Below, piece after piece: positions 3,161 through 58,155 of a DNA stretch of 64,000 bases. Source of the DNA: an uncultured Candidatus Saccharibacteria bacterium (GTDB taxonomy: Bacteria; Patescibacteriota; Minisyncoccia; Phycocordibacterales; UBA2100); NCBI GenBank assembly GCA_964434285.1, contig CAYSUJ010000004.1, positions 18,732 through 82,731 on the forward strand, read 5' to 3'. How positions within the stretch are numbered: the first letter of the stretch is position 1; every line of letters starts with the position of its first letter. The translations under genes were made by a program, and so were the position numbers. The notes under the pieces were generated by a model that did no database searches, was not told the DNA's origin, and was given only the letters and a program-made list of their open reading frames with translations.

Positions 3161-3861
3161 TCAGAGGGTCACAGTGTCCGAGTTACGGAGGAGGAGCCGA
3201 GCGTCGGCGTCCCACCGACGGTCGCGGCCGAGCCTGCCGACGTAGGCGCTCCACCCGCGGTCGCCCCGAACGAAGCCGAGAACCGAGACGCTGCCATTCA
3301 CATCCTCAACGAATGCGAAGTTGGCATAGCCGTCAGTACGCAAGCCGACTTCTTCACCCGATTCCTACCGCTCGACGAGCGCTTCGGCTTCCGAGAGTGC
3401 GAGCGTGAGCCCGCGCCCCCGCAGTCGTGCAACAATCTCATCGTCAGCTGTACCGGGCACAGCCTGTACGGCCGCGAGCGCCATCTCCCGGAAGGTCGTG
3501 CTTCCGGATTCTGGAGCTGGTAGATCCCGACCGATTCGGTCGCGTTCGCGGTCTGCTGAGCGAGAAGCCAGCGATCGATGTCGGGATGGCGATATCCCCA
3601 AAGCGTGCCAGTGAAGCAATCCCGGGTTTTCTTGGGCTTTGCGCCGGTGAAGATCGCCTTTTTGTGGAAGACGAGAGTCGGACGCATTCGCTTTTCAGCG
3701 GACACCGAAAGTGCCTCTCGCAACGCTGTGGCCAGGGCTTTTCCATTGTTCGCCCAATGCAGGGCGACGTCAGGCTCGATATCGCGCGGCAACGCCTTTA
3801 TTACGGCGCCGGCGAATTCGGAAAACTGCCCAACGGACAAGGCTGTTCCATGTTTAGACAT
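3161..3861 (-). pseudogene. DGR target (variable) protein gene, apparently frame-disrupted
   Basis: From the ATG at 3861 (ribosome-binding site GAAAGGAA), a well-behaved frame reads MSKHGTALSVGQFSEFAGAVIKALPRD... but decays after about aa 110. A second frame becomes protein-like (...REMALAAVQAVPGTADDEIVARLRGRGLTLALSEAEALVER) and is separated by one in-frame TAG at 3365-3367 from the VR-containing C-terminal frame, which ends at 3161. Confidence 0.5.
3180..3292 (-). repeat. DGR variable repeat (VR)
   Basis: Aligns to the TR with 19 mismatches in 113 bp. Eighteen of these are at TR-adenine positions (minus strand) and one is a synonymous C/T. It encodes VLGFVRGDRGWSAYVGRLGRDRRWDADARLLLRNS. Confidence 0.8.
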
Positions 3862-8344: not shown

Positions 8345-9123
8345 ATAAGCAGAGTGCCAACGATAAGAAAAGGACCGAACGGCACTTCGCTTTTCATTGT
8401 AACCTTCGCCCGTGGTTCAACTGAGTACTGTGTGGGGGTAACGATAGCGCGAAACTTCGCTGCGTACGGCGATGAATTGAACACCAATGCGAGTCCTACA
8501 ACGGCACCAATCACAAATGCATACAAAAGTGCTAGAAATCCGTACGGTCCAAGTAAAAATCCCATACCCAGTGAAAATTTCACATCTCCAAAACCCATCC
8601 ATGCGCCTCGCGAAAACAGATGCAGCATGAAGAGCGGTACAGCAACGGCAACCCCCCACCCCACACCAATCACATACATACTTAATGGCGCGCCCACCTC
8701 GGCAAGCCACAGGAAGGTGAATGCGAGCGAAAGCGCGTTCCATGTCCACACCCAAGCATTCGGCATGAGCATTGTGTAAAAGTCATAAACCGCAATAGCA
8801 ACCCAGAGCACTACTATTGCACATGCGATAAGTTTAAGGTGGAGAGGAATAAATAATCCGCCCACGAAATAAAACCCAAGACCCACAGCAAGCTCGACGA
8901 GCGGGTATTGAGGCGATATCGGAGCCGCGCACATGCGACACCGCGCCCGCAAACAAACCCATGAAAGAACCGGCACAAGGTCGCGTGGTTTGAGGGTTGC
9001 ATTACACGAAGGGCACGCACTCCTCCCCCAGAGTGCCCCTACCCCATCCCGGAGAATAAGTACGTTCGTAAAACTTCCTACAATCAAGCCGAGAAGAAAC
9101 CAAACGATTGCAAACTCGAACAT
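8284..9123 (-). CDS. pilD: prepilin peptidase (A24 family)
   Basis: Polytopic membrane protein with a CPSC...CRMC zinc motif, plus the GFGDVKF and GMGF regions. Confidence 0.8.
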   Translation of the reverse strand: MFEFAIVWFLLGLIVGSFTNVLILRDGVGALWGRSACPSCNATLKPRDLVPVLSWVCLRARCRMCAAPISPQYPLVELAVGLGFYFVGGLFIPLHLKLIACAIVVLWVAIAVYDFYTMLMPNAWVWTWNALSLAFTFLWLAEVGAPLSMYVIGVGWGVAVAVPLFMLHLFSRGAWMGFGDVKFSLGMGFLLGPYGFLALLYAFVIGAVVGLALVFNSSPYAAKFRAIVTPTQYSVEPRAKVTMKSEVPFGPFLIVGTLLIWFALFYAYTPLLTFLGLLH

Positions 9124-9188
9124 CGCACTACTCTATCATGCAAACACCCGCCTCTCGGCGGGTGCTTTGAGATGCACGTAGAAGATGA

Positions 9189-9668
9189 CTACGGTCTCAT
9201 GCAGTAGTAGGCGGGAGTTCCAGTGTCTGCACAGTCGAGACCACCTGCTGTTCCATCAACATCACCCGATGGAACTGCAGACGAGCCGCCTTCGATACCC
9301 GAACGAACTATGTAGCTTGCACATGGCGCCGTCGCACATGCCGTCCCATCGAGGTTAGCAGAAGCATAGCTATACACGTAGGTACCGCTATTGGTCGGAT
9401 CTGACGGAATCGACGAGATATAGTTGCTCGTCGTGAGCGCTGTTAGCGTGGTCGAAGCCGCGCCGCTGCCCGCTGGATAGCTTTGGTTGGTGTCATAGTA
9501 GAGCTCCAAAGCAAGTTGGAGTTGCTTCACATCCGAAACGCGACGTGCGTCACGTCCTTTTACGCGGGCGCTGTTGAGAGACGCCAGCACGACTGAGGAC
9601 AGAATGCCTATAATTGCTATGACTACAAGCAACTCAATTAACGTAAAACCTCTATTTATTTGATGCAT
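9189..9668 (-). CDS. pilA: type IV major pilin (the listed ORF runs to 9716; likely start MHQINRGFTLIE)
   Basis: N-terminus RGFTLIELLVVIAIIGILSSVVLASLNSARVKGRDARR, followed by a variable Cys-containing C-terminus. Confidence 0.8.
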   Translation of the reverse strand: MHQINRGFTLIELLVVIAIIGILSSVVLASLNSARVKGRDARRVSDVKQLQLALELYYDTNQSYPAGSGAASTTLTALTTSNYISSIPSDPTNSGTYVYSYASANLDGTACATAPCASYIVRSGIEGGSSAVPSGDVDGTAGGLDCADTGTPAYYCMRP

Positions 9669-10234: not shown

Positions 10235-11440
10235 TTAGATACTGCCCGCAATGTTGTAGATCGGCACGAGGACTGACGCGAGAAGCACGGCGACACCGAC
10301 CGCGAGTGCCACGATCATGATCGGTTCGATCAAGGAAACGAGTGTGTCGACGGCGTTATTAACTTCCCTCCGATAGAAGCGCGCAATAGACTCGAGAATT
10401 GGACCCATGTTACCCGTCTCTTCGCCAATCTTGATCATCGCAACCATAATGCCCGGCATTTCAGGATGTTTGCGAAACGCTTCAGAGACCGTCATGCCAC
10501 CCTTAACGTCTGAAGCGACGCTCTGCAAAGCCTGCTCATACGTTGGATCTTCTACAACCGTGCCGGTAATCTCTAAACCACGCAGCATCTGGATACCACT
10601 CTTGAGCATGGTCGACAGGTTATCGGCAATACGAGAGAGAAACAATTTACGATAGATTCCTCCGATAATAGGAACCTGCAGGCGCGCCTTGGAGAAGAAA
10701 TATTTGCCCGACTCTGTTTTTATATACCTGTAGAAAAAAACCCCGGCAATGCCAAGGAGTGCTCCCCAAAGTAACGAATAGTTGGCAAGCCCATTACTGA
10801 TACCAATGACAATTTTGGTATAGAGCGGAATGTCTTGCCCAACCTCTTCGAGCATGACTGCAAGACGCGGAATCACCAAGGTCATCATGAGAAACATGAC
10901 GATAAGGAATGTGCTGATGATGAATGCCGGATAGATGAGCGCATTCTTCGCCTTCGAGGTTATCTCGTAATTGCGTTCGAGATAGTCGGCAAGAAAGAGA
11001 AATGTTTCATCAAGCTTTCCAGCCTCTTCACCCGCGCGCACCATGTTGACATAGAAATTTGAGAACACCTCGGGGTGGCGCGACATGGCGGCAGAAATTG
11101 CGGAGCCCGCTTGGATATCGGCAGCAATTGCAGAGAGCTTCGCAGCAAGCTGCGGAGTTCGCGCTTCGGCTGCAAGAAGTTGAAAAGCGCGGAGAGCAGA
11201 AACTTGTGCCTCAAAAAGCGTCGTCATCTGCCGACTCAGCATTACAATGTCGCTCCCCTTAATGCCTGAAAAGAGTTGGATATTAGTCCCGAGGGAGATC
11301 TTCTGCTCGAGTGGATCTATCGAGGCAATAATGAGACCGCGGCGCTGCAAGGACGCAATTGCCACATCCATGTTCACAGCGTCAATCTGACCACTGCGAT
11401 CTGCTCCCTGCTCGTCAACTGCTTTGTAATTAAAAAGCAT
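10235..11440 (-). CDS. pilC: type IV pilus platform protein (GspF/PilC family)
   Basis: 401 aa with two GspF-type repeats and three transmembrane segments. Confidence 0.85.
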   Translation of the reverse strand: MLFNYKAVDEQGADRSGQIDAVNMDVAIASLQRRGLIIASIDPLEQKISLGTNIQLFSGIKGSDIVMLSRQMTTLFEAQVSALRAFQLLAAEARTPQLAAKLSAIAADIQAGSAISAAMSRHPEVFSNFYVNMVRAGEEAGKLDETFLFLADYLERNYEITSKAKNALIYPAFIISTFLIVMFLMMTLVIPRLAVMLEEVGQDIPLYTKIVIGISNGLANYSLLWGALLGIAGVFFYRYIKTESGKYFFSKARLQVPIIGGIYRKLFLSRIADNLSTMLKSGIQMLRGLEITGTVVEDPTYEQALQSVASDVKGGMTVSEAFRKHPEMPGIMVAMIKIGEETGNMGPILESIARFYRREVNNAVDTLVSLIEPIMIVALAVGVAVLLASVLVPIYNIAGSI

Positions 11441-22419: not shown

Positions 22420-25218
22420 CTAGTATGTTGGGAAATCGGGCATGGGAGGGGGCGGAGGCGGCGCAAAGCGCTCACGGATCTCCGTTTCAATCTCCTCCCT
22501 ATCGCGGCCGAACGTACGATACGACAATTTCTTGAGAGAATCAACATGCTCAAAACTGAACTGCGGGAGGTTCGCGGTGCGGAGCGTGAAGGGGCGCACC
22601 GGCGTGCCGTTTGAGAGCATGGCAACTGCAGCGGTGCGGTTTTCCTGATTTTCGAGGTCATTACGTGTGAAGACGGGGTGGAACTGCTTCTCGAGAAACT
22701 CGGCATCGGTCGTACCAATGCGGAATGCAACTTTCGTGCCGACGTTACCCACAACGGCATCGCGAATCTTCTCGTCGAGCTGGGCAATGAACTGGTGCGC
22801 GATCGTGAGCGAGAGCTTGTATTTGCGGGCTTCGGAGAGAATGGTTGAGATTGACGGCGTGGCAAAGTTTTGGAACTCATCGATGTAAAGATAAAACGGC
22901 GGGAGTGTGCCACGGGTGTCGACGCGCGAGAACGCCGCCTGGAGGAATTTGGATACGAGCACGAGGCCGAGGAGCGAAGCGTTTCGGTCTCCGAGGCGAC
23001 CCTTAGATAGATTGGCGAGGAATATCTTCTTTTCGTCCATTATTTTTCGGAAATCGAAGGCAGATTTTTGCTGCGCGACGATAGGCCGCATGATGTCGTT
23101 TGCGGAAAAGACGTCGATTTTTGAGGAAATGTAGGGCACGATGTTTTCAAGAGACGCTTCCCCACCCGCGGCTTCCGCAATCTTCGTCCAGAAGTTTACG
23201 ATGACCGGATTTTTGCAACGTGAGAGTTTGAGGCGACGAAACGCGCTGTCGGCCATCACTCGCGGAATCTCGAGAAGGGTGGAACCGCTCGCCTGATCCT
23301 CCACGACGAGTTGCGCAGCGTTCCGGTAGTATTGCTCGAACATCGGGCCAAAGGCATCGGGAACATCCGAATACAGCTTGCGGAAGATGCCATACACCTC
23401 ATCAACGACGAATGTCTTTAATTCCGGACGTGACTCGTCATACTCGAGCATGTTGAGTCCCATCGGGCGCGCCGTGTAGGCTGGGTCGAAATAGATGACG
23501 TCGTTGTAGCGTTCGGGAGGCACTGCAGCTAAAATCTCCTCGATGTCGGTGCCGTGCGGATCAACATAACCCACGCCTTCCCCATTCTGCATGTCCTGAA
23601 TAATCATGTTCTTGAGGATGCCGGTTTTACCCGTACCCGTTTGCCCAATCACATAGCAATGACGGAGGCGATCTTGCGCACCAAAGCGAACTTCGCGCTC
23701 TTCGGCGCCGTACCGATTGATGCCCATCACGATGCCGTCGGGGGCCATGTCGACAGGTGCAGGAGCCTGTTTTGCGTTCGACTTCTTGAGTTCACGCGAG
23801 GTCGTCACACGCTCGGCGGTAAAGTGCACCATCGTCACAATCTCACCAAGCGAGAGCGGAATGGCAGACCCCGCATCGAATGTACGGTAGGTGAATTCCT
23901 GCAAAGGGTTCCCAAATTCGGGCAACCACCCACTGCCCGCTTTCGTAAAACGGAGACGATTTCCTCGTGAATCATCAAACTGATTGAAAGGCGCGATGAG
24001 GTTGTCGAGGAGGATATCTGCACGCTCTTTGTCGGGAGCGGAGGTTACGAGCCGAATGACGGCTGGCACAATACGGCTCTTGATCTTCCTCCCGATCTCT
24101 TCGGTTGCCACTTGGTCGCCCTGCTTCATCATGCGCCCCTTCTCTTCCTCGCGCTCTTTTTCGGACGTTATAACCGACTTCACAACGTCATGCACAAAAT
24201 CACCGAATACCGTCTCGGGCGTGTTAAGGGCCTCACCAATGTGTTTGCCTTTCTCAAGCGCACGGAGAATCTTCTTGTAGTGCTGATTGTACCGCTCACC
24301 TTCCGTGGAAACGACGATTTGGAGCGCCGCACCCTCGCCGTGCTTTGCAATTTTCGCAAATGCCGCGAGAAGCACGTTCATCGGATCGTGTTCGAAGAGT
24401 TCGTAGGTTTTGAGAGGATACGCAGGGTGCTCTGCAAGCGACGCAGTTGCGAGTGCGTGCACGCCGTCGTAATTAAAAATGTTGTAATCGCCGCGAAGTT
24501 CTGAGATGCGCGCATTCGGAAATACAGATGAGATGAGCCGTTCCGCAAGCGCTTGCTTGGTGCGCGGCACGGCGAGGTAGAGCGATGCCTCCTCGGTGCC
24601 CTCGGCAACGGCAATCTCGATAGAAAAGCCCTCGGCAGGAGTGATGAGCGAGAGCAGGCCCGCATAGAGCTGTTCAGAGGACGCGAGCACCTGCTCGAGT
24701 TTCTGTTGGCTCTTTTCCTCGCTCTCGCCGTGCGCCTGGGGGTGGATCTCAAATAACACGAGGTGCAGGGCACGCGAGACACGCTCGGGAGCCGGTAGCC
24801 CTTTCTGCGGCAACCCTTCGGCAATGTAGCGCACGAGGACGCGATGGAGATCGTCCTCGAGGTGCTGATTTTTCATCTTCGCGACAACTGAGAGGGCGTT
24901 TCGGATGCCACGCTCGGCAACTATTTTCAAGAGCTCGTCCATCTGTGTGTCGTGCACCTCAGGCTCAAGCTTCAAGACATGATGTAAGATCTCATGCTCC
25001 GGCATCGCAACCGCCTCGTGCAAGACCGCTTGCGGTGCCACGCCAGCATATTCTTGTATCTCGCGTCGCGCGATGCGCTCACGATCAGGCTGCGCAACGG
25101 CTTCAAGCTCTTTCTCCTTCTCTGCCACGCGTTCACGCAAAAAGCGAAGCTCCTCTTCTGGAGACTTGAACGTGAATGAAGGTGCAATCGCACGCTCCCC
25201 TATCCCGCGCGGCGGCAT
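22420..25218 (-). CDS. FtsK/HerA-superfamily (DUF87-like) P-loop ATPase with a ~460-aa uncharacterised N-terminal region
   Basis: Walker A GQTGTGKTG followed by YVDPHGT (the DPHGEY-like HerA/VirB4-clade signature). Walker B YIDEFQNFA...TIAHQ. The C-terminus ends in a poly-Pro tail. Confidence 0.55.
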   Translation of the reverse strand: MPPRGIGERAIAPSFTFKSPEEELRFLRERVAEKEKELEAVAQPDRERIARREIQEYAGVAPQAVLHEAVAMPEHEILHHVLKLEPEVHDTQMDELLKIVAERGIRNALSVVAKMKNQHLEDDLHRVLVRYIAEGLPQKGLPAPERVSRALHLVLFEIHPQAHGESEEKSQQKLEQVLASSEQLYAGLLSLITPAEGFSIEIAVAEGTEEASLYLAVPRTKQALAERLISSVFPNARISELRGDYNIFNYDGVHALATASLAEHPAYPLKTYELFEHDPMNVLLAAFAKIAKHGEGAALQIVVSTEGERYNQHYKKILRALEKGKHIGEALNTPETVFGDFVHDVVKSVITSEKEREEEKGRMMKQGDQVATEEIGRKIKSRIVPAVIRLVTSAPDKERADILLDNLIAPFNQFDDSRGNRLRFTKAGSGWLPEFGNPLQEFTYRTFDAGSAIPLSLGEIVTMVHFTAERVTTSRELKKSNAKQAPAPVDMAPDGIVMGINRYGAEEREVRFGAQDRLRHCYVIGQTGTGKTGILKNMIIQDMQNGEGVGYVDPHGTDIEEILAAVPPERYNDVIYFDPAYTARPMGLNMLEYDESRPELKTFVVDEVYGIFRKLYSDVPDAFGPMFEQYYRNAAQLVVEDQASGSTLLEIPRVMADSAFRRLKLSRCKNPVIVNFWTKIAEAAGGEASLENIVPYISSKIDVFSANDIMRPIVAQQKSAFDFRKIMDEKKIFLANLSKGRLGDRNASLLGLVLVSKFLQAAFSRVDTRGTLPPFYLYIDEFQNFATPSISTILSEARKYKLSLTIAHQFIAQLDEKIRDAVVGNVGTKVAFRIGTTDAEFLEKQFHPVFTRNDLENQENRTAAVAMLSNGTPVRPFTLRTANLPQFSFEHVDSLKKLSYRTFGRDREEIETEIRERFAPPPPPPMPDFPTY

Positions 25219-25276
25219 AAGGGAATTATATCACTGCATAACAAAGGGCGACCCTCTACGGATCGCCCTTTACTAA

Positions 25277-25699
25277 TCACGAGCGTACAAACATTCGCAA
25301 GAGCGAGATTTGGCGACGTGTTTTTGGGATGTGCGTTGCTGCAAGATAGCTAGCCAATTTTTCCTTCCCAACTGCTCGCCACTGTTCCTTAGTCAGCTTC
25401 TCTCGACGCAAACTCATCTCTGAAAGCACACTGTCAACACTCCTTGCAAACGAACGAACACATTCTTCTTCTTTTTCCGAGAGACGTCTGGTGCGCTTCA
25501 TACGACACAGCGACTGTTCTGAGGCACGCTGCCAAAGCCTCTCTAGAAATCTCCCCCTTCGTACACCCGCATTAATTTGCCTCTCACATTCCCCACAGTG
25601 GATATTGGTAGGAAAATTATCCACTTTCCACCTGTAAGGAAGCGAGTATACGTACACACCACACCCGTTACAGTACACATCGGGACGAAAATCGGTCAT
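25277..25699 (-). CDS. hypothetical zinc-ribbon protein
   Basis: CNGC...CGEC motif. Confidence 0.3.
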   Translation of the reverse strand: MTDFRPDVYCNGCGVYVYSLPYRWKVDNFPTNIHCGECERQINAGVRRGRFLERLWQRASEQSLCRMKRTRRLSEKEEECVRSFARSVDSVLSEMSLRREKLTKEQWRAVGKEKLASYLAATHIPKTRRQISLLRMFVRS

Positions 25700-25778
25700 T
25701 TGGACACCTCTTTATTAGTCTTTTCTGATTTAACATGAAAAATGCCCGAGACGCAAATATTAAATTTTCGTTAAAATC

Positions 25779-25857
25779 TCCGGCCCGTCTTTAGTGATGA
25801 GGACGGTGTGCTCAACGTGCACCGTGCGGGAGCCGTCACGCGTGCGGTAGGAGAATA
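25779..25857 (-). repeat. degenerate duplicate of the 3' end of map (direct repeat with 26996-27076)
   Basis: About 90% identity over ~80 nt with the last ~28 codons of map. One indel puts the copy out of frame. Confidence 0.7.
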
Positions 25858-25904
25858 GCATATAGGGTTTAGCGTAGGGGTATGGGGTATAGAAAGAGAT
25901 TCAT

Positions 25905-26198
25905 TTACAACCCCAAACGTTTTGCGATTTCATCGTACACTTCGGAGCGGTGCAGGATACCGAGAATGTGCACATCCGATGAGCGGATCTTGTACACAAC
26001 GCGATAATCGCCAACACGCAGGCTTCGCCATCCGACGAGTGATTGACGCAGAGGCTTCCCGAAAATTTCCGGATGATGCACCAATTTTTCCAACATAGAT
26101 GCCTGTATTTCGGCGCGCCAAAAAGAATCGAGGCGTGGTATGTCTTTGTGAACAGCAAACCAATCGTATTCTAGCGCGTATTCTTTTTTAGATTCCAT
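25905..26198 (-). CDS. relE: RelE/ParE-family type II toxin
   Basis: ...VGDYRVVYKIRSSDVHILGILHRSEVY. Confidence 0.7.
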   Translation of the reverse strand: MESKKEYALEYDWFAVHKDIPRLDSFWRAEIQASMLEKLVHHPEIFGKPLRQSLVGWRSLRVGDYRVVYKIRSSDVHILGILHRSEVYDEIAKRLGL

Positions 26199-26422
26199 GC
26201 CTCGTCATGCGAATACGACCGACGTTTCTGTTTAGTACGCGCCTGCAGTCGTCTTTGAATAATCGCTTCAAGTGCTCTATCCTCTTCGAGCTCGAGAGCT
26301 TCTTCTATCAAAGCCCCAACCTTACTTGCTACGGGCATTTCATCGCGCTTCGCAAGCGCGCGCAGAATGTCACGGGTATTTCTCGAGACACTAATATTAA
26401 TACGTGTTTTTGCAGTTGCCAT
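26171..26422 (-). CDS. ribbon-helix-helix antitoxin candidate
   Basis: 83 aa. Overlaps the toxin start. The N-terminus TRINISVSRNTRDILRALA is RHH-like. Confidence 0.5.
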   Translation of the reverse strand: MATAKTRINISVSRNTRDILRALAKRDEMPVASKVGALIEEALELEEDRALEAIIQRRLQARTKQKRRSYSHDEAWNLKKNTR

Positions 26423-26494
26423 AAGTGTTACAAAAGTGTAACAGTTAAAATAATGTCGTCAAGAAGCTTGCGAAGCTTATGCCCGCGAAATCTA

Positions 26495-26983
26495 TTACCC
26501 ACTTTGTGCAATCCCTTGAGGAATATCATCACGAGCGACCCTAACAACAAGAAGTGGTCGAATATTTCTTTCACAACGATATTGAAATTGAGTATCTTGC
26601 GTGAAATCTCTCTTCCAGAAGACGTGTACAAAACCTTCTGTTTCAGGGTGCTTAGCGTAAGAAATTGCTTTCTGATCGGCCGTAAAATCCCATCGACCAT
26701 CCCGAGCGCCTTGAGTCGAAAAAGAGCTGCGACCCCCGGGTGCCACGAGTGCCATAAATACTGCAAGTTCATAACCCTCATCGGGAGCGGCAAAAACAGC
26801 GGGACGACCGTCCGGTTCGCCATTATTGAGGGCCTGTCGTGGCTCGAGTTCTTCTAACCTCCGAGAAGACCCATGGAATACAAAGCTACCAGTTTCCGCG
26901 AGCGCTTTGAGAGCGATAGCGCCCCTCAACTCACCGCGTTCAATTCTTTGCAAGAGAGCGAGTGGATCTGATATGCGCTCCAT
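26495..26983 (-). CDS. hypothetical protein
   Basis: 162-aa ORF in the islet between the direct repeats. Confidence 0.3.
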   Translation of the reverse strand: MERISDPLALLQRIERGELRGAIALKALAETGSFVFHGSSRRLEELEPRQALNNGEPDGRPAVFAAPDEGYELAVFMALVAPGGRSSFSTQGARDGRWDFTADQKAISYAKHPETEGFVHVFWKRDFTQDTQFQYRCERNIRPLLVVRVARDDIPQGIAQSG

Positions 26984-26984
26984 A

Positions 26985-27755
26985 TCAAACCTTTGTCAAA
27001 ATCTCTGGCCCGTCTTTTGTGATGAGAACGGTGTGCTCGACGTGCACGGTGCGGGAGCCGTCGCGGGTGCGGTAGGAGAAGTTGTCGCTGTCCACAAACA
27101 CGACGCCCGAGCCGTGGGCAAACATCGGCTCGATGGCAAGCACCATACCCTCGAGAAGCGGCACATCGTGGTGCGCATCGCGATAGTTTGGCACATGCGG
27201 CTCTTCATGCACCTCCTTCCCCACACCGTGGCCGGAGAGATTTTTAGGGTAGCCGTAGCCGTATTTGGTCGCGATGCGCTCAATTGCTTCACCAATGTCA
27301 CCTGTTGTGTTGCCCACGCGCGCGGCGGCGATGCCTGCGTCAAGCGCCTCATGCGCAGCGCGGATCATCTCCCTGTCCTTCGGATCCTGCTCGTCTCCGG
27401 CAATGACCGTGATCGCATGGTCGGAAAAATAGCCGTGATGGTTCACGCCGAAATCGAGTTTGACGACATCGCCCTCTGCAAAGGGTGTGGAGTTCTCGCT
27501 CGCGGGAGCGTGCACGATGACATCGTTCACCGAGACACAAAGCGCTGCCGGAAACTTCTCACCCTTCCTGCCGGATTCATAGTCGTAGAATGCTGCCTTG
27601 TCGCCATCTGCTTTCAGAAGCTCCCACGCGCGCGCATCAATATCTTTCGGAGTCGTCCCCGGCTGCACCATTTCTCCAAGGACCTTCAGTATCTTCGCCG
27701 CGCGGCGGCCGCTTTCTCGGAGTAATGCTCGCTCTTCATCGTTTTTCGTGATCAT
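26985..27755 (-). CDS. map: methionine aminopeptidase type I
   Basis: Metal ligands present in ...VIVHAPASEN..DFGVNHHGYFSDH...NLSGHGVG...LAIEPM... Confidence 0.9.
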   Translation of the reverse strand: MITKNDEERALLRESGRRAAKILKVLGEMVQPGTTPKDIDARAWELLKADGDKAAFYDYESGRKGEKFPAALCVSVNDVIVHAPASENSTPFAEGDVVKLDFGVNHHGYFSDHAITVIAGDEQDPKDREMIRAAHEALDAGIAAARVGNTTGDIGEAIERIATKYGYGYPKNLSGHGVGKEVHEEPHVPNYRDAHHDVPLLEGMVLAIEPMFAHGSGVVFVDSDNFSYRTRDGSRTVHVEHTVLITKDGPEILTKV

Positions 27756-27866
27756 CCCGTTAGAAATAGGACGCGGACGATAACGTGCCGCACCTTATTT
27801 TCTTATGAATTATAATTTCGACCTCAGTAAGCATATAGTGTTTGCGTCCGCGATTTCTAACGGGAA

Positions 27867-28460
27867 TCATGCGAGATTGAGTTTAGTGAGAATATTCTTG
27901 TAGATGGTCTCGACGTCGGGCTCGCCGTCTATGACATGGATAGCGCGGCCGCGCTCCTTAAGGAGCGCAAGTTGTGGAAGAACATCGCTTTTGTACCACG
28001 AAAGACGGTTACGAATCCCTTCTTCCGTATCATCGTTACGCCCTCGCGCAAGCAAACGCCTCACCGCGGACTCTTCAGAAAGTTCGAGTGAGATCACTTG
28101 GAAATCGTCACGCCCGAAATACTTCATGGCATCATCGAACCCACGCGTCTGATCGGCGCCGCGCGCGAGGCCGTCGGCAATGATGTGCTCATCGCCGTTT
28201 TTAAGGTTTTCCACGAGCTTCTTAGTCTGGAGGTAGATCGGCATGAAATCCGGCATACGGTGCCCTGCGTCGATCGTGGTGCCCGTAAGCTTCCCCGCAT
28301 AGGAGCCACCGTCGCGGAGCGCACGGAGCTCGGAACCCATGTCGATATGGATAATTCCCTGCTCGCTTTTGGAGCGAAGAAAGTCCATGAGCATCTTGAC
28401 CTGCGTGCCTTTTCCAGCCCCTTGGGTGCCGAAAAATAAGACTGAGAGTGGCTTCATCAC
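27867..28460 (-). CDS. adk: adenylate kinase
   Basis: P-loop GTQGAGKGTQ. Confidence 0.9.
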   Translation of the reverse strand: MMKPLSVLFFGTQGAGKGTQVKMLMDFLRSKSEQGIIHIDMGSELRALRDGGSYAGKLTGTTIDAGHRMPDFMPIYLQTKKLVENLKNGDEHIIADGLARGADQTRGFDDAMKYFGRDDFQVISLELSEESAVRRLLARGRNDDTEEGIRNRLSWYKSDVLPQLALLKERGRAIHVIDGEPDVETIYKNILTKLNLA

Positions 28461-29032
28461 GCCAAACTATAGCCTTCTTTCTTCAAAATTTCCACTACCT
28501 GATCGATTGCTTCTTCAAGTTTCCCGTCCTCATTCGTAATGCGGTAATCGTAAAAAGGGGCCTCCTCGTGCACTTCGCGCTCAGTAAATTTCTTGCGCTC
28601 TGCCCACTCCGCGTCGCTCATAGGAGCGCGAGCACGGATTCGTTTTTCAAATGCATCGAGTGACGGCGGCATGATAAAAAAAGTCGTCGCATCGTAGTGC
28701 TCTTTTAGATACTTTGCGCCGACGATCTGTATTTGGAACAGTGTCACTTTGCCCACAACCACATTCGCGTCGAGCGCGGGTTTGTAGAGTCCGTAGTAAG
28801 TATCGGTTTCAGGACGATGATAGTGCTCGGGGATCGTTCCCTCAGCCACTTTCTGCAAAAATTCTTCGTTCGAAAAGAAAAAATAGTTTTTCCCGTGTTC
28901 CTCGCCCGGGCGCGGTGCACGCGTCGTTGCATTCACCGCAAATACGGTATTAGGGCAACGCGCTAAAATTCCTTTAATGATTGAATCCTTACCGCTTCCA
29001 GCGGGACCAGCAATAGCAACCGCACATTTCAT
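28457..29032 (-). CDS. gmk: guanylate kinase-like
   Basis: GPAGSGKDS...ATTRAPRPGEEHGKNYFFFSNEEF. Confidence 0.6.
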   Translation of the reverse strand: MKCAVAIAGPAGSGKDSIIKGILARCPNTVFAVNATTRAPRPGEEHGKNYFFFSNEEFLQKVAEGTIPEHYHRPETDTYYGLYKPALDANVVVGKVTLFQIQIVGAKYLKEHYDATTFFIMPPSLDAFEKRIRARAPMSDAEWAERKKFTEREVHEEAPFYDYRITNEDGKLEEAIDQVVEILKKEGYSLA

Positions 29033-33179: not shown

Positions 33180-33506
33180 ATGTTCTGGAAGACAAAAGCC
33201 CGCGATAACATCAGTTTCGTCTTTGGTTCTAAGGCCGCAAAAGCGCTTCGGGAAATAACGGCTTCATATGGGTTCGACTCTGATGCGCACACGATTCGAA
33301 TGGCACTCACAAGTGCTCGATCATTAATGAACATCGAAAAAGAACGGGGGTGGCAGGTTATTTTGCGGGACGAACTTGGCAACGAGTGGAGTTTTTCGAT
33401 GAAAGACCCCACTAAGGCGTTTCCCATAGGAACGCACAAGGCCCCGCCCCCGGACAAGCCTCGAGCCGTCGGAAATGTCATTCATTTCGACTTTGGGAAA
33501 CAATAG
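33180..33506 (+). CDS. hypothetical protein (108 aa) with its own terminator
   Basis: GGGGAG ribosome-binding site and a plausible TTGAAA/TAATGT promoter upstream. A strong terminator follows. Confidence 0.35.
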   Translation: MFWKTKARDNISFVFGSKAAKALREITASYGFDSDAHTIRMALTSARSLMNIEKERGWQVILRDELGNEWSFSMKDPTKAFPIGTHKAPPPDKPRAVGNVIHFDFGKQ

Positions 33507-33526
33507 GAGACCGCCACTCCTGTTAA

Positions 33527-33550
33527 GACCGCCTCTCGGCGGTCTTTTTC
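33527..33550 (+). terminator. rho-independent terminator
   Basis: gaccgcc-tctc-ggcggtc hairpin followed by TTTTTC. Confidence 0.7.
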
Positions 33551-33557
33551 TTGCTGC

Positions 33558-33585
33558 TTGACAAATTTATACCAAAATATATATT
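33558..33585 (+). promoter_or_regulatory. sigma70-like promoter for dinJ-yafQ
   Basis: TTGACA-N16-TATATT. The ATG of dinJ is 8 nt downstream of the -10 element, so the transcript is leaderless or near-leaderless. Confidence 0.5.
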
Positions 33586-33592
33586 TGAGTAT

Positions 33593-33865
33593 ATGGCTAC
33601 TACTACCGTACTTTTTAAGACCGATAAGAAATTAAAAGCGGCTGCGCAGGCGACTGCAAAGAAGATGGGCATCCCCTTTTCTGCTCTTCTTAATAACGCG
33701 ATGAGGGAGATTGTCGAGAAACAAGAAGTAACCTTTTCGGCGAAGCCGCTCGTGCCTACTCCCTATTTGAGACGGATATTGGAACAGGGGGAAAAAAATC
33801 TAAAAGAAGGAAGGGTTACTTACTACAACAGTCTTGAAGAGATGCGTGCAGCTCTCGACAAGTAA
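33593..33865 (+). CDS. dinJ: RelB/DinJ-family antitoxin (the listed ORF starts at a TTG at 33551)
   Basis: MATTTVLFKTDKKLKAAAQATAKKMGIPFSALLNNAMREIVEKQEV... Confidence 0.7.
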   Translation: MATTTVLFKTDKKLKAAAQATAKKMGIPFSALLNNAMREIVEKQEVTFSAKPLVPTPYLRRILEQGEKNLKEGRVTYYNSLEEMRAALDK

Positions 33866-33869
33866 CACT

Positions 33870-34133
33870 ATGCGAACTGTTGGTGATAAGGTGTTTAATC
33901 GTCAATACAAAAAGCTTGCCAAATCAATCCAGGATAAGCTGTGGGAACGTCTCGCGCTTCTTATCCAAAACGAATCACATCCCTTGCTGCACGACCATAA
34001 ACTCAATCCGCCATATGATGGCTACCGGAGCATCAATATCACCGGGGACTATCGCCTGGTGTACAAGAAGATGGATGAGGATACTTACTATCTTCGCGCC
34101 ATTGGAACGCATCACCAACTGTACGGATCGTAA
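33870..34133 (+). CDS. yafQ: YafQ/RelE-family toxin (the listed ORF starts at 33834)
   Basis: ...LHDHKLNPPYDGYRSINITGDYRLVYKKMDEDTYYLRAIGTHHQLY. Confidence 0.7.
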   Translation: MRTVGDKVFNRQYKKLAKSIQDKLWERLALLIQNESHPLLHDHKLNPPYDGYRSINITGDYRLVYKKMDEDTYYLRAIGTHHQLYGS

Positions 34134-34263
34134 GGAGGCCGGATGGTGGAGAACAGCGGAAAAATTAGAGCACGCCACGGGCTATCCAAAAATAGAGGCG
34201 GGCATATAGTTCCCCGCAGGTACGGAATGAACCGTACACATTGAGGAAACTAAGGAGGTTCAA

Positions 34264-34713
34264 ATGGCATTACGCAGAGGGTTTATGCTCCTTTGTGCCG
34301 CACTTCTCTTCTCTCTCCCGGCGCACGCAAACTCCTTGGCACCCTTCTCGGGCAGTGGAGGGGCGAGCGGAACGATTCTGCTCGTGGGCAAGTCGAGCGC
34401 GGATCGCGCGAATTGCTCCCGACGCTCAAGTGTCGTCGGGAGCAGTGGGCTCTCGTTCTCGCTCTCGTGCAGCGGCGGACGCGATTTCAACCTTTCATGC
34501 TTGTTCAGTACGACAGGTTCACGCGTGAGCGGGAACTGCAGCGCGGGAATCGCAAGCCTCTCGGGAAGCGGCACCGTGAACGGCAAAGTGATGCAGTTGT
34601 CGATGCAAAGCAGTTTCGGGACGCATGCGTATATGACGATCACGCCGTCGTCGCTCTCGTTCCGATCGCCGGACGCGAAATATGTGAAATCGCTGCAGAT
34701 CAGCAGCCGATAA
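34264..34713 (+). CDS. secreted Ser/Gly-rich small protein
   Basis: Strong ribosome-binding site AAGGAGG. Signal peptide MALRRGFMLLCAALLFSLPAHA. Confidence 0.45.
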   Translation: MALRRGFMLLCAALLFSLPAHANSLAPFSGSGGASGTILLVGKSSADRANCSRRSSVVGSSGLSFSLSCSGGRDFNLSCLFSTTGSRVSGNCSAGIASLSGSGTVNGKVMQLSMQSSFGTHAYMTITPSSLSFRSPDAKYVKSLQISSR

Positions 34714-41095: not shown

Positions 41096-41872
41096 TTATT
41101 TGTCCTTCTTAGGAGCGCGTGTTGCAAGGATCGCAACCGCTGCTTCTGGGTTTTCAATGACGATGTATGAGTGTTTGAGGATCGCGACTGGGTTCAGATC
41201 GCGCACCGCGCTCGATGAGATGTTGCTGATATTGCGGAAGCTCTTTGTGACCGATGGCTTTGCATCAGCGAATGCGACGAGTGCCGCGTTCTTCTTCTTA
41301 GAGGAGAGCTTTGTGAAATCACCCTTCGAGAGTGCGACGAGGGCCTTCTTTGCAGAAGCCGTCGATGGCTTTTCGATGCCAAAGGTGTCGACGAAGATAA
41401 TGCCGCCGTCCTTCATCTTCTGAGAGAGCGCCATGAAGAGTGCCTTTGCACGCATCTTTGCAGGAATCGTGCGAGCAAACACTTTTTCGTTGCGAGGACC
41501 GTGGGTGACACCGCCACCCTTCCAGATCGGAGAGCGGATGGATGAGTGACGAGCGCGGCCGGTGCCCTTTTGCTTCCATGGCTTCTTACCGCCGCCACGA
41601 ACATCGCCGCGACCCTTCGTGTGGGCGACGTTTGTGCGGGCATTGTCCTGCATTGAGGTGACGACCTGATGCATGAGGGATTCGTTCCACGCAAGACCGA
41701 AGATGTTCTCGGGGAGTTCGAGCGAACCTGCCTTCTTGCCTTGTGCGTTGTAGATGTCAGTTTTCACCCCGTTAGAAGTGCCACCTTGTTTGCGAGATGT
41801 GTCGTTATTCATATTTTTGTCTTTCTTTTCCATAGATTCGTTTGTTGCACTTCTAACGGGGTTCATATACAA
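41096..41872 (-). CDS. rplD: 50S ribosomal protein L4 (the start is probably internal)
   Basis: ...GGGKKPWKQKGTGRARHSSIRSPIWKGGGVTHGP... Confidence 0.85.
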   Translation of the reverse strand: MYMNPVRSATNESMEKKDKNMNNDTSRKQGGTSNGVKTDIYNAQGKKAGSLELPENIFGLAWNESLMHQVVTSMQDNARTNVAHTKGRGDVRGGGKKPWKQKGTGRARHSSIRSPIWKGGGVTHGPRNEKVFARTIPAKMRAKALFMALSQKMKDGGIIFVDTFGIEKPSTASAKKALVALSKGDFTKLSSKKKNAALVAFADAKPSVTKSFRNISNISSSAVRDLNPVAILKHSYIVIENPEAAVAILATRAPKKDK

Positions 41873-47812: not shown

Positions 47813-47877
47813 CCTACCCTCAAAATGAAGAAACGCCACCTCCTCCGCGCCTCTAGATTCACTTGATTTTCAGCGAG
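47813..47877 (-). repeat. conserved leader element, copy 1 (shared with 49290-49355; partial copy at about 48548-48580)
   Basis: About 95% identical over 65 nt. On the minus strand it contains GGAGGAGG plus GTG GCG TTT CTT CAT TTx, i.e. a ribosome-binding site and the first codons MAFL(H/R)(F/L). Confidence 0.6.
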
Positions 47878-47966
47878 CGTCCGTTATGATTGATCGTATC
47901 TTCCAGTCAGCAATGACTGAAAGGGTACTACATCCAAGGGTGGCCCTCCGAAAGGAGGGCCACTTT

Positions 47967-48566: not shown

Positions 48567-49306
48567 TAGATTGCTTGGGATGCGAAATACTCTTCCACCG
48601 CACCTGGAAGTTCGTGGGGATGGTCGATGATTTTGAAGGGATTCCCATTCTCGAGGCGCTGGTGCTCGTGGAAACCCCAGCTGACCCCGATCGCGCCGAC
48701 GCCTGCTGCTGTTGCTTCTCGGATGTCGCCCAGCGTATCGGTAACAAAGAGGCAGTGTTCTGGCGCAAGCTCGTAGCGCTCGAAGAGCATGTGCATCTTT
48801 TCGACTTTGCTCGGGTGGACGTCGTTGCCAAAGACGTCTTCAAAATACTGTGCGGCGTCGTGTTTTTTAAGGAATGACATCACCGGACTTGAGATGTTCG
48901 ATGAGATGATGGCCATGCGATAGTGTGCCGAGAGATCGTGGAGTGCGCGAATGATGCCCGGAAATGGATGCGCACGCTCGAACAGTGGCACATAGTTCTC
49001 CCACCAATCAAGATCGTGGCTGCATTGCGTGTGGTCGCGTTCGTCGTGTGGGAGGCGCGCATCATTGATGTTCCCCTCAAAATAGGAACGGTAGCGCTCT
49101 TCTGTCTCGTACTGGCAGACCTTTCGCGCAGTGCCGTACGCAGCAAAAAAGGAATCAACGATGACACCGTCGAAATCAAAGAATACGCATTTTCTGTCGT
49201 CGCGGGGCACGGCGTAATAGTAGCCGACTGGCCAAAATGGCGCCATTTGATCCAGTAACCGACATAGCTCCCTTGCAGAGCGCAGTATCAAATGAAGAAA
49301 CGCCAC
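48566..49306 (-). CDS. HAD-superfamily hydrolase
   Basis: DxD motif FFDFDGVIVDS. The N-terminal MAFLHL is encoded by the repeated leader element. Confidence 0.6.
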   Translation of the reverse strand: MAFLHLILRSARELCRLLDQMAPFWPVGYYYAVPRDDRKCVFFDFDGVIVDSFFAAYGTARKVCQYETEERYRSYFEGNINDARLPHDERDHTQCSHDLDWWENYVPLFERAHPFPGIIRALHDLSAHYRMAIISSNISSPVMSFLKKHDAAQYFEDVFGNDVHPSKVEKMHMLFERYELAPEHCLFVTDTLGDIREATAAGVGAIGVSWGFHEHQRLENGNPFKIIDHPHELPGAVEEYFASQAI

Positions 49307-49355
49307 CTCCTCCGCGCCCCTAGATTCACTTGATTTTTAGCGAGCGTTCGTTATA
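49290..49355 (-). repeat. conserved leader element, copy 2
   Basis: See copy 1. Confidence 0.6.
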
Positions 49356-54782: not shown

Positions 54783-55789
54783 TTACCACGTTGCGACCGC
54801 GCAAGAGCCCGCTCCGCCGGCGCGGTTCGGGGCACCTCCCCCTCCGTCGGGCTGCATACCCACTTGATTGTAGCCACCACCGCTTTCACCAAATTGGGAT
54901 ACTCCCCCGAGCGCACCAGCGTAATTCCCAGCACCCCCACCGCCGCCGTAGACAGATGCGCCGGCACTTGTGCCTCCACTACCACCACCGCCATGATAAT
55001 AACCCGAACCTGCTGTACAGCCACCAACAGATGGATTTGTCACTCCTTCTCCGCCACCTGAGTAACATATTAAAACAACCCCATTCTCACTCTGTGTCGT
55101 TTCTCTTGCCAAACGCGGCTCTCCTGGCAATGCAAAATTACTCCCTGTGTTGCCCGCAGAAAGCGGCCCTCCACCGCTGCCACCAACCGCAGCCCACGAA
55201 CTCGCTCCACCTCCCCCGCCTCCATAGGCCGTCAGGTACGAACCGAAACTGGATGTGCCCCCAACAGCACCTGCGGATCCTCCTGCCCCAACTGTTACAG
55301 AAACCGATGTAGGGAGACCTGAAAGCGGCATAGTGCGTGACGAATAACCGCCTCCGCCGCCACCACGACATTCGATGAGCACCATCGTACCATTCGTCGG
55401 TTTCGTCCACGTACCCGATGCATTGAATACTTGATACGTACCAGTGCTCGTCACACTTGTCGAGGTCGCAATGGGTGCCCACGCGCCGCCATTGCTCTTC
55501 ACCTCCATCACGCCCGCATTGTCGCGAATGCCGTAGCCAGTTGTACCAGAGAGGGTACCGAAGTGAGATAGCGGGAAGTGCCGGAAAGAAGACTGTTTCC
55601 AAAAACCGCAAGCCCGTTCACTGAAAGACTCGCATTTTTAACCTGATTTGTTGTACCGACGTTCACGGGTGCGCTCACGTTGCCGTTTGGTGGCGCTTGC
55701 GTGGGGCCGGTCCAGGCGTGCGCGAACCCGACACCGAGGCCTACAAATACTAAACAGAAGACGAAAAAGGAACGGAGGGAGAGACCCAT
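54783..55789 (-). pseudogene. secreted tail-fibre-like protein with a Gly-rich C-terminal domain, split by a 1-bp frameshift into ORFs 55508-55789 and 54783-55511
   Basis: The N-terminal ~75 aa are identical to the N-terminus of the 57307-58155 ORF. Relative to that copy, one T is missing at about 55563. Confidence 0.5.
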
Positions 55790-57306: not shown

Positions 57307-58155
57307 TCAGATCCCCGCTGCATCAAGACGTGCTTTCAATTTCTCGATTTGGTCCTGCTGGTCCCTCACAACACCCAAAAGGGGCACGACTAATTTTGCG
57401 TAATCAACAGACCTGTATCCATTTGCTCCAATCGACACTAATTCAGGAAATAACTTCTCTACTTCTTGCGCGAGGACACCAATGTCAGATGCACCGCTAT
57501 CGTTCCATACGAACTGTCTCGGCTCAATCTCCATCACCCCACGCCACGCGTCAAGCGGTCGAATATCTCGCTTCAAACGCTCATCCGATGAGTATAGAAA
57601 TGAAGTAGCCTGAACAGCCCCGTTGACGTGTAGTTTTTGAGACGGCGAGGTCGTTCCGATTCCCACATTCGTCCCGTTATCGAAAATTTGTGAATTTCCC
57701 ACTGTACGCGCAGCGGTGAGCTTTGGGAGATAGTTGGTGGTGCCACTGCCCGAGAGAATGCCGAGCCATGCGCCGCCATTGCTCTTCACCTCCATCACGC
57801 CCGCATTGTCGCGAATACCGTAGCCAGTTGTACCAGAGAGGGTGCCGAAGTTGAGATAGCGGGAAGTGCCGGAAAGAAGACTGTTTCCAAAAACCGCAAG
57901 CCCGTTCACTGAAAGACTCGCATTTTTTACCTGATTTGTTGTACCGACGTTCACGGGTGCACTCACGTTGCCGTTTGGTGGCGCTTGCGTGGGGCCGGTC
58001 CAGGCGTGCGCGAAGAGCGTGCTTACGCTGAAAAGAAGTACGGCAAAGAGAATGATAAACCGTCTCCCAGAGATATGTGACATAATTCTCCGCTTCAGTA
58101 TACCTCCCCCGCGCAACGCCCGCAGTGGCGCGACCTTACAACTGTGGAAAGTCAT
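57307..58155 (-). CDS. secreted tail-fibre-like protein with a C-terminal intramolecular-chaperone (Peptidase_S74-like) domain
   Basis: Signal peptide, then a conserved N-terminal module (AWTGPTQAPPNGNVSAPVNVGTTNQ...), then YSSDERLKRDIRPLD...IEKLKARLD. Confidence 0.6.
   Translation of the reverse strand: MTFHSCKVAPLRALRGGGILKRRIMSHISGRRFIILFAVLLFSVSTLFAHAWTGPTQAPPNGNVSAPVNVGTTNQVKNASLSVNGLAVFGNSLLSGTSRYLNFGTLSGTTGYGIRDNAGVMEVKSNGGAWLGILSGSGTTNYLPKLTAARTVGNSQIFDNGTNVGIGTTSPSQKLHVNGAVQATSFLYSSDERLKRDIRPLDAWRGVMEIEPRQFVWNDSGASDIGVLAQEVEKLFPELVSIGANGYRSVDYAKLVVPLLGVVRDQQDQIEKLKARLDAAGI

Follow-up and report, generated by a model that had tools for sequence, protein, structure and literature searches.

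The map-ATPase locus

We analyzed a 64-kb stretch of patescibacterial DNA (64,000 nucleotides of contig CAYSUJ010000004.1, assembly GCA_964434285.1; hereafter the window) in which the 3' end of map, the gene for methionine aminopeptidase, occurs twice. On the minus strand, on which all features of this locus lie, an intact 256-aa map gene (26985–27755; Peptidase_M24, E 3.7e-47) is followed by a 162-aa open reading frame (ORF162), a toxin-antitoxin (TA) pair, the second map 3' end (map'), a small zinc-ribbon gene (ORF140) and the gene for a VirD4/TraD-like ATPase. The original prediction placed relE, a ribbon-helix-helix (RHH) antitoxin gene and ORF162 between the two copies, as ORF and domain calls bear out, and interpreted the arrangement as the footprint of a site-specific integration into the 3' end of map. 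Is the repeat the footprint of a mobile element, or does it record another kind of event?

The right copy (26982–27080) comprises the last 31 map codons, the TGA stop and 3 nt; the left copy, map' (25757–25855), consists of 31 codons in frame, a stop (TAA) and 3 further nt. A repeat search and a base-by-base comparison place the copies at a constant offset of 1225 and give 87 identities in 99 nt without a gap; the chance expectation for a 99-nt match in a 64-kb window is about 4e-30. The longest identical run common to both copies is 14 nt. The left copy translates as FSYRTRDGSRTVHVEHTVLITKDGPEILTKI up to its stop, and its allele sequence includes TTCTCCTACCGCACGCGTGACGGCTCCCGCACGGTGCACGTTGAGCACACCGTCCTC; the map tail ends ...TKV. 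A direct repeat of the map tail had been predicted at about 80 bp and about 90% identity, and its existence stands although its length was underestimated. The indel that was thought to put the left copy out of frame is not there: the copy is gapless and in frame and has its own stop codon. A 14-nt match between AGCATATAGGGTTT (25857–25870) and AGCATATAGTGTTT (27830–27843) was regarded as chance.

ORF162 (26495–26983) begins 1 nt past the map stop and is a conserved neighbor of map in relatives; its predicted fold resembles that of ADP-ribosyltransferases (ART), with no recombinase fold. A promoter scan located the TA promoter/operator at 26425–26462, with a –35 box TTGACG (26457–26462), a –10 box TACACT (26435–26440) and the palindrome GTTACACTTTTGTAACAC (26425–26442). 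The 83-aa RHH/RelB-DinJ-like antitoxin gene (26171–26422) overlaps the toxin gene by 28 nt, and its matches to RHH_5, DUF6290 and RelB/DinJ are weak, all below cut-off. The 97-aa RelE/ParE-family toxin (25905–26198), by contrast, exceeds the curated thresholds of both ParE_toxin PF05016 (38.8 bits; cut-off 23) and TIGR02385 (28.1 bits; cut-off 27.9). PADLOC gave no defense-system match for the TA pair, ORF162 or ORF140, and Rfam no family match in 24500–28500.

Beyond map' and a 60-nt spacer comes ORF140 (25277–25699; Shine-Dalgarno AAGAGG at 25707–25712), which encodes a small zinc-ribbon protein with two CxxC motifs. A word-indexed search with ORF140 returned only ORF140 itself, and HMMER found 19 distant relatives at 24–43% identity (at most 39% over the full length), of which most measure 140–190 aa and have this zinc ribbon, CxxC...CxxC, at their N terminus. 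Two of these were looked up for the order map - ORF140 - ATPase and both lie in other contexts, one beside a Mur ligase gene and the other beside a gene whose translation, inspected by eye, has a Nudix-box-like motif. On the 3' side of ORF140 is a hairpin terminator (25243–25271) with a 12-bp stem followed by UGUUAU; a 71-nt stretch containing it folds at –29.1 kcal/mol (z –4.7).

The ATPase gene (22420–25218; 932 aa) encodes DUF8128 and TraG-D_C domains and has weak TraD/VirD4 matches; its product is a homolog of type IV coupling proteins (T4CP). Such homologs are reported from nearly all Patescibacteria genomes, mostly distant from virB4 (PMC12102498), so the ATPase is no evidence for a conjugative element. 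A TATAAT –10 box (25225–25230) lies 6 nt upstream of the ATG at 25218. In six of the compared relatives (L011, L024, L053 and L100–L102), too, a –10 box (TATAAT, TATACT or TATGAT) ends 6–8 nt before the ATG of the VirD4-like ATPase gene. A Shine-Dalgarno sequence is absent before this ATG in all six and in the window (25219–25230). Because of this spacing and the missing Shine-Dalgarno sequence, the ATPase mRNA is probably leaderless.

Related loci and the resident genes of the gap

The labels L009, L010, L011, L014, L021, L024, L043, L045, L049, L051, L053 and L100–L102 denote the contigs or loci that were compared. The relatives of Map come from Candidatus Paceibacterota, Kaiserbacteria and other Patescibacteria metagenome-assembled genomes. 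A Map search of genome contigs returned relatives at no more than 62% identity. The last 60 aa of Map, searched against metagenome contigs, gave 80 loci with a best identity of 77% over these 60 aa, none of them near enough to be a parent allele. Exact-sequence look-ups of the window's Map and ATPase gave no record and no strain variants. The closest genome is L011, with amino acid identities of 91% for Map, 95% for SecY and 92% for NDK, and by blastn it is collinear with the window except at about 26570–25231.

Which of the genes around the repeat are peculiar to the window? In L011 the order is map - ORF161 - 930-aa ATPase - ndk, where ORF161 starts 1 nt after map and ends 43 nt short of the ATPase gene, and in L014 it is map - ORF167 - one small ORF - ATPase - ndk. 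The ORF162 homologs of both loci start 1–2 nt past map, which marks ORF162 as a syntenic neighbor of map and not as cargo. The nearest homologs of the toxin lie, each with an RHH gene, in the same slot, directly upstream of the ATPase gene: L100 reads map - RHH - RelE - ATPase - ndk, L102 map - RHH - RelE - ATPase, L101 (map end) - RHH - RelE - ATPase, and L053 map - ORF293 - RHH - RelE - ATPase. The toxins of these four loci are 66–78% and the antitoxins 59–78% identical to those of the window. The TA promoter is conserved as well in the window, L100 and L102, where TTGACG is followed, after a spacer, by an almost identical palindromic operator that reaches nearly to the ATG.

In L011, L014, L100, L101, L102 and L053 there is no second map tail, and their spacers of 40–98 nt are too short for one. 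More widely, a second tail is found in none of 93 other map loci; in a survey of 95 loci that carry a map C-terminus, two occur in the window's own genome alone. Since ORF162 and the RHH-RelE pair occupy the relatives' slot without any repeat, the supposed islet genes are chromosomal residents. What no relative carries is the segment made up of map', ORF140, the terminator and the promoter, and this segment is placed one base past the –10 box of an older ATPase leader. The proposal that relE, the RHH gene and ORF162 arrived together by site-specific integration is therefore not supported: the genes are resident in repeat-free relatives, and one border of the presumed element falls in a promoter.

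The gap between map and the ATPase gene is variable. Over 36 loci it ranges from 15 nt (L024, L051) to 3.7 kb (L043). Its contents differ by clade: purD and a LOG-family gene in the more distant one, and assorted small ORFs, an ABC transporter pair or the TA pair in the closer one. The ATPase gene itself lies downstream of map in about 35 further loci, at 64–83% amino acid identity in most and at 46–49% in two. The flanks are mosaic: Gmk is only 35% identical to its L011 counterpart whereas neighboring genes are 91–95% identical, and a sliding identity profile of the ATPase against L011 alternates between blocks of 97% and 47%. Such mosaic identity indicates that exchange of segments between lineages is common here. 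The ATPase profile was also examined for a breakpoint that might reveal a direction of transfer; it gave mosaicism only and did not decide the direction.

Two versions of one gap

The 49 nt past the RelE stop (25856–25904) align with the leader that separates RelE from the ATPase gene in L102, and include a –10-like TATGCT (25857–25862) where L102 has TATACT. One base beyond this box the window switches to map codon 226. The junction (25855/25856) is abrupt, reading GCTA followed directly by TTCTCCTA in gene orientation, and the similarity of both contexts stops there. The L011 leader has TCTCTCT where map' starts with TTCTCCT, so that a microhomology TTCTCyT may have guided the join.

Judged from its sequence, the locus reads as two complete-looking versions of one gap joined head to tail. 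Version 1 consists of map, ORF162, RHH, RelE and the ATPase leader, and is truncated 1 nt after the leader –10 box. Version 2 runs from codon 226 of map' through its stop, ORF140, the terminator and the promoter to the ATPase gene; this series, with its TATAAT box, looks like a complete gap allele.

Origin of the left copy

The substitutions between the copies point to where the second tail came from. Over the 31 codons there are 10 synonymous changes and a single conservative nonsynonymous one (I/V), giving dS 0.64, dN 0.0145 and dN/dS 0.02. When 11 substitutions were placed at random in 200,000 simulations, one amino acid change or fewer was obtained in 0 (kappa 1) or 4 (kappa 4) of them, a probability of at most 2e-5. 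Divergence so dominated by synonymous changes implies that both tails diverged inside working map genes, in separate lineages. The left copy thus derives, on this sequence pattern, from a second, once-functional and diverged map allele, and one tail of the pair belongs to a different lineage.

Comparison with nine related genomes narrows the source. The left and right tails are each other's closest relatives, being 88% identical to one another and 69–82% identical to the tails of these genomes, and the motif RTVHVEH is confined to the window's two tails. From these two observations the partner was a sister lineage, nearer than any available genome. The lack of decay in map' indicates that the event was recent; the map' fragment itself is probably functionless.

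A probable recombination scar and its alternatives

We favor, with moderate confidence, the reading that the left copy is what remains of a second map allele, its orphaned 3' end, and that the locus is a homeologous-recombination scar in the variable gap between map and the ATPase gene. This agrees with the part of the original prediction in which the duplication marks an insertion or recombination event at the map 3' end that left map intact. The scar would have arisen when DNA of a sister lineage was taken up and integrated by homology-facilitated illegitimate recombination (HFIR), a process documented in naturally competent bacteria (PMC3240628). One crossover would have taken place in a conserved flank, while the other join would be illegitimate, perhaps at TTCTCyT between the ATPase leader and map codons 226–228. 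Candidate anchors exist on both sides, Adk and Map each being 91% and the N-terminal half of the ATPase 83–97% identical to L011. If the anchor lay upstream, in adk or map, an incoming map 3' end with ORF162 and the TA pair would have pushed the native tail and ORF140 downstream, a "3'-end displacement" of the kind proposed for orphaned 3' ends and displaced downstream genes in type VI secretion system (T6SS) and Rhs loci (PMC5361080). If it lay in the ATPase gene, the map' - ORF140 block would be the foreign piece.

Several points weigh against this reading. No genome was found with version 1 alone or version 2 alone (map - ORF140 - ATPase). DNA divergence from even the closest relative available is about 22%. 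The putative microhomology is read from the L011 leader and not from a parental sequence. Saccharibacteria, a group within the Patescibacteria, have been shown to be naturally competent and to recombine homologous DNA (PMC10633639), and competence of the present lineage is assumed by analogy. Finally, the same end state is reached by a two-step route in which a foreign block with a complete second map gene (map2 - ORF140) was acquired downstream of RelE, after which a 5' deletion of 670 nt reduced map2 to its final 99 nt. We regard this route as unlikely. It predicts the same synonymous-only divergence, redundant copies of essential genes are commonly deleted, and the junction could equally be a deletion scar. 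On the other hand it needs two rare events where the recombination scar needs one, two map genes occur in none of the 93 other loci, and the junction falls exactly at the end of the version-1 leader, as expected of an insertion boundary and not of a later internal deletion.

Site-specific integration would now take the form of an integrase-less element, made up of a map tail, ORF162, RHH and RelE, that a trans-acting recombinase put into the map 3' end; attL and attR would then be the two 99-nt copies, as in cis-mobilizable elements (CIMEs) or satellites. The direct repeat of a gene 3' end does flank 1.1 kb of DNA with a lower GC content (0.47–0.50) than map (0.58), map is regenerated in frame, and the identical runs of up to 14 nt could supply a core. 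We nevertheless consider this explanation very unlikely, and the duplicated tail is probably not the footprint of a mobile TA island. As the original prediction noted, no integrase remains: no ORF from 13.4 kb to 29 kb has a recombinase domain, nor has any in the syntenic gene tables of L009 and L011, so that none lies within about 12 kb. Recombinase remnants, which had been suggested as a check, were not found in the islet, where intergenic stretches are at most 75 nt and the ART-like fold predicted for ORF162 is not that of a recombinase. In repeat-free relatives ORF162 and the TA pair are found at matching positions, the border of the "element" falls inside the promoter of the ATPase gene and not at an att site, the second tail is missing from all 93 other map loci, and the map tail has no match in 2.9 million viral contigs. 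The original prediction held that a left copy in relatives lacking the islet would speak against integration. A left copy without the islet is seen in no relative, and to that extent integration is not refuted; but the comparison does not discriminate, because relatives carry the islet genes without any repeat. A related view, to which we give little credence, is that the map-ATPase gap of the Paceibacterota/Kaiserbacteria clade is a dedicated cassette-exchange site. Integrase-less modules (RHH-RelE, the ART-like ORF162, ORF140 and others) would be swapped there by an unrecognized system that uses the map 3' end as attachment sequence, and the window would preserve one such swap at a stage when the displaced tail had not yet disappeared.

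Two further explanations can be set aside with more assurance. Duplication of the map tail in situ, followed by neutral decay of the dead copy, is the simplest origin of a direct repeat, but a dead copy mutating at random should show indels and about 75% nonsynonymous changes, whereas the observed changes are 10 synonymous to 1 conservative, with no indel and the stop kept. With the simulated probability given above, this origin is effectively refuted by the substitution pattern and we find it barely conceivable. An assembly chimera, in which the assembler stitched the gap alleles of co-occurring strains in tandem, would suit a metagenome contig whose two halves both resemble alleles of one locus. 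It is nonetheless most improbable, since two contigs from separate runs, L009 (13.6 kb, SRR14932609) and L010 (1.8 kb, SRR14932608), match the window at 100% identity through the junction and the two copies. Moreover the copies have no common run longer than 14 nt and there is no shared k-mer at the junction, so a de Bruijn graph offers no repeat or path through which an assembler could make the join.

Comparison with known systems

Integrative elements that target gene 3' ends and bring a replacement end include tRNA and tmRNA islands, integrative and conjugative elements in the 3' ends of fda, rplL and rpsI, and integrase-less CIMEs. The window resembles these in that its repeats are the 3' end of the target gene, the gene is intact, and the copies differ at silent sites, one being from elsewhere. 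It departs from them in having no integrase, in the content between its repeats, which is chromosomal and syntenic in relatives, and in a boundary that lies in a neighbor's promoter; moreover its repeat does not recur in other genomes and is unmatched on viral contigs. With type II RelE/ParE-RHH modules the pair shares a ParE_toxin-domain toxin, a putative antitoxin gene that lies upstream and overlaps the toxin gene, and a palindrome, probably an operator, in the promoter, but it is a long-standing resident of the slot in several lineages and not a mobile unit.

In form the locus resembles HFIR as it occurs in natural transformation of S. pneumoniae, A. baylyi and P. stutzeri (PMC3240628 and references in PMC5361080). 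It shares with that process a single abrupt non-homologous junction beside conserved flanks able to serve as anchors, the addition of non-homologous DNA (from some hundreds of bp up to about 1,200 bp) and, on the favored reading, partner DNA from a related lineage. Unlike those cases, the event in the window is reconstructed from a single natural product, with a microhomology read from a relative and competence carried over from Saccharibacteria (PMC10633639). The 3'-end displacement of rhs, contact-dependent inhibition (CDI) and T6SS effector-immunity loci (PMC5361080) is similar in that the upstream gene keeps its full frame, an alternative 3' end and downstream gene are orphaned downstream, and alternative modules stand in tandem. 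It differs because the gene in the window is a housekeeping aminopeptidase and not a polymorphic toxin, because only 31 nearly identical codons are duplicated, with no swap of function, and because there is one displacement and no array.

On the favored reading the locus holds a recombination scar of ordinary type, one more case of a familiar class of event, and is a clean natural example in the candidate phyla radiation (CPR)/Patescibacteria of an essential gene whose tail was duplicated while the gene stayed intact. Where the ribosomal-protein/secY-adk-map operon ends, accessory genes would then turn over by exchange between related lineages and not via a mobile element. There is also an annotation trap, in that a repeat of a gene 3' end around a TA pair mimics an att-flanked island, while in the relatives the TA pair proves to be resident, and what is new lies in a different segment. 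In practice the locus is of modest use, as a marker of recombination among CPR lineages and as a guide to a variable hotspot that encodes several small, uncharacterized proteins.

Other features of the window

The genes adjoining the locus have identities of their own that do not agree with one another. In comparisons of gmk, adk and ndk (window 27867–29032 against L011, L100 and L021) the values are sharply discordant: Gmk is 35% identical to L011 and 76% to L021, and Adk is 91% identical to L011 and 35% to L100. This discordance indicates, at the sequence level, xenologous replacement of single genes inside an otherwise syntenic operon.

The intergenic space between adk and map is filled by an element of about 95–118 nt with inverted termini (CCCGTTAGAAAT...ATTTCTAACGGG) and a variable interior. 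Copies were found in the window at 27756–27864 and 41768–41860, in L011 at 9120–9228, in L045 at 3235–3346 and in L049 at 10414–10531. The adk-map copy abuts the map ATG and lies 2 nt from the adk stop. The element folds as RNA at –39 kcal/mol (z –4.5), and its adk-map copy has no Rfam match (24500–28500 searched).

A second small islet, on the opposite strand, lies between rplE and rpsH in the ribosomal-protein operon (window about 33180–34713, equivalent to L009 2270–3803; L011 1941–3151). In the window genome and in L011 it contains a YafQ/ParE-like toxin gene, a putative antitoxin gene and two unknown ORFs.

Two further direct repeats occur in the window. One, of 65 nt (47823–47887 and 49290–49354; 95% identical), flanks HAD hydrolase and NYN-domain genes, with a second NYN gene just outside, and looks like another partial tandem duplication. 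The other, of about 250 nt (55479–55726 and 57766–58014; 97–99% identical), lies in a 282-aa protein with a Peptidase_S74 chaperone domain and in a 242-aa ORF, which together flank a Kelch-repeat protein; it may stem from recent gene conversion or duplication.

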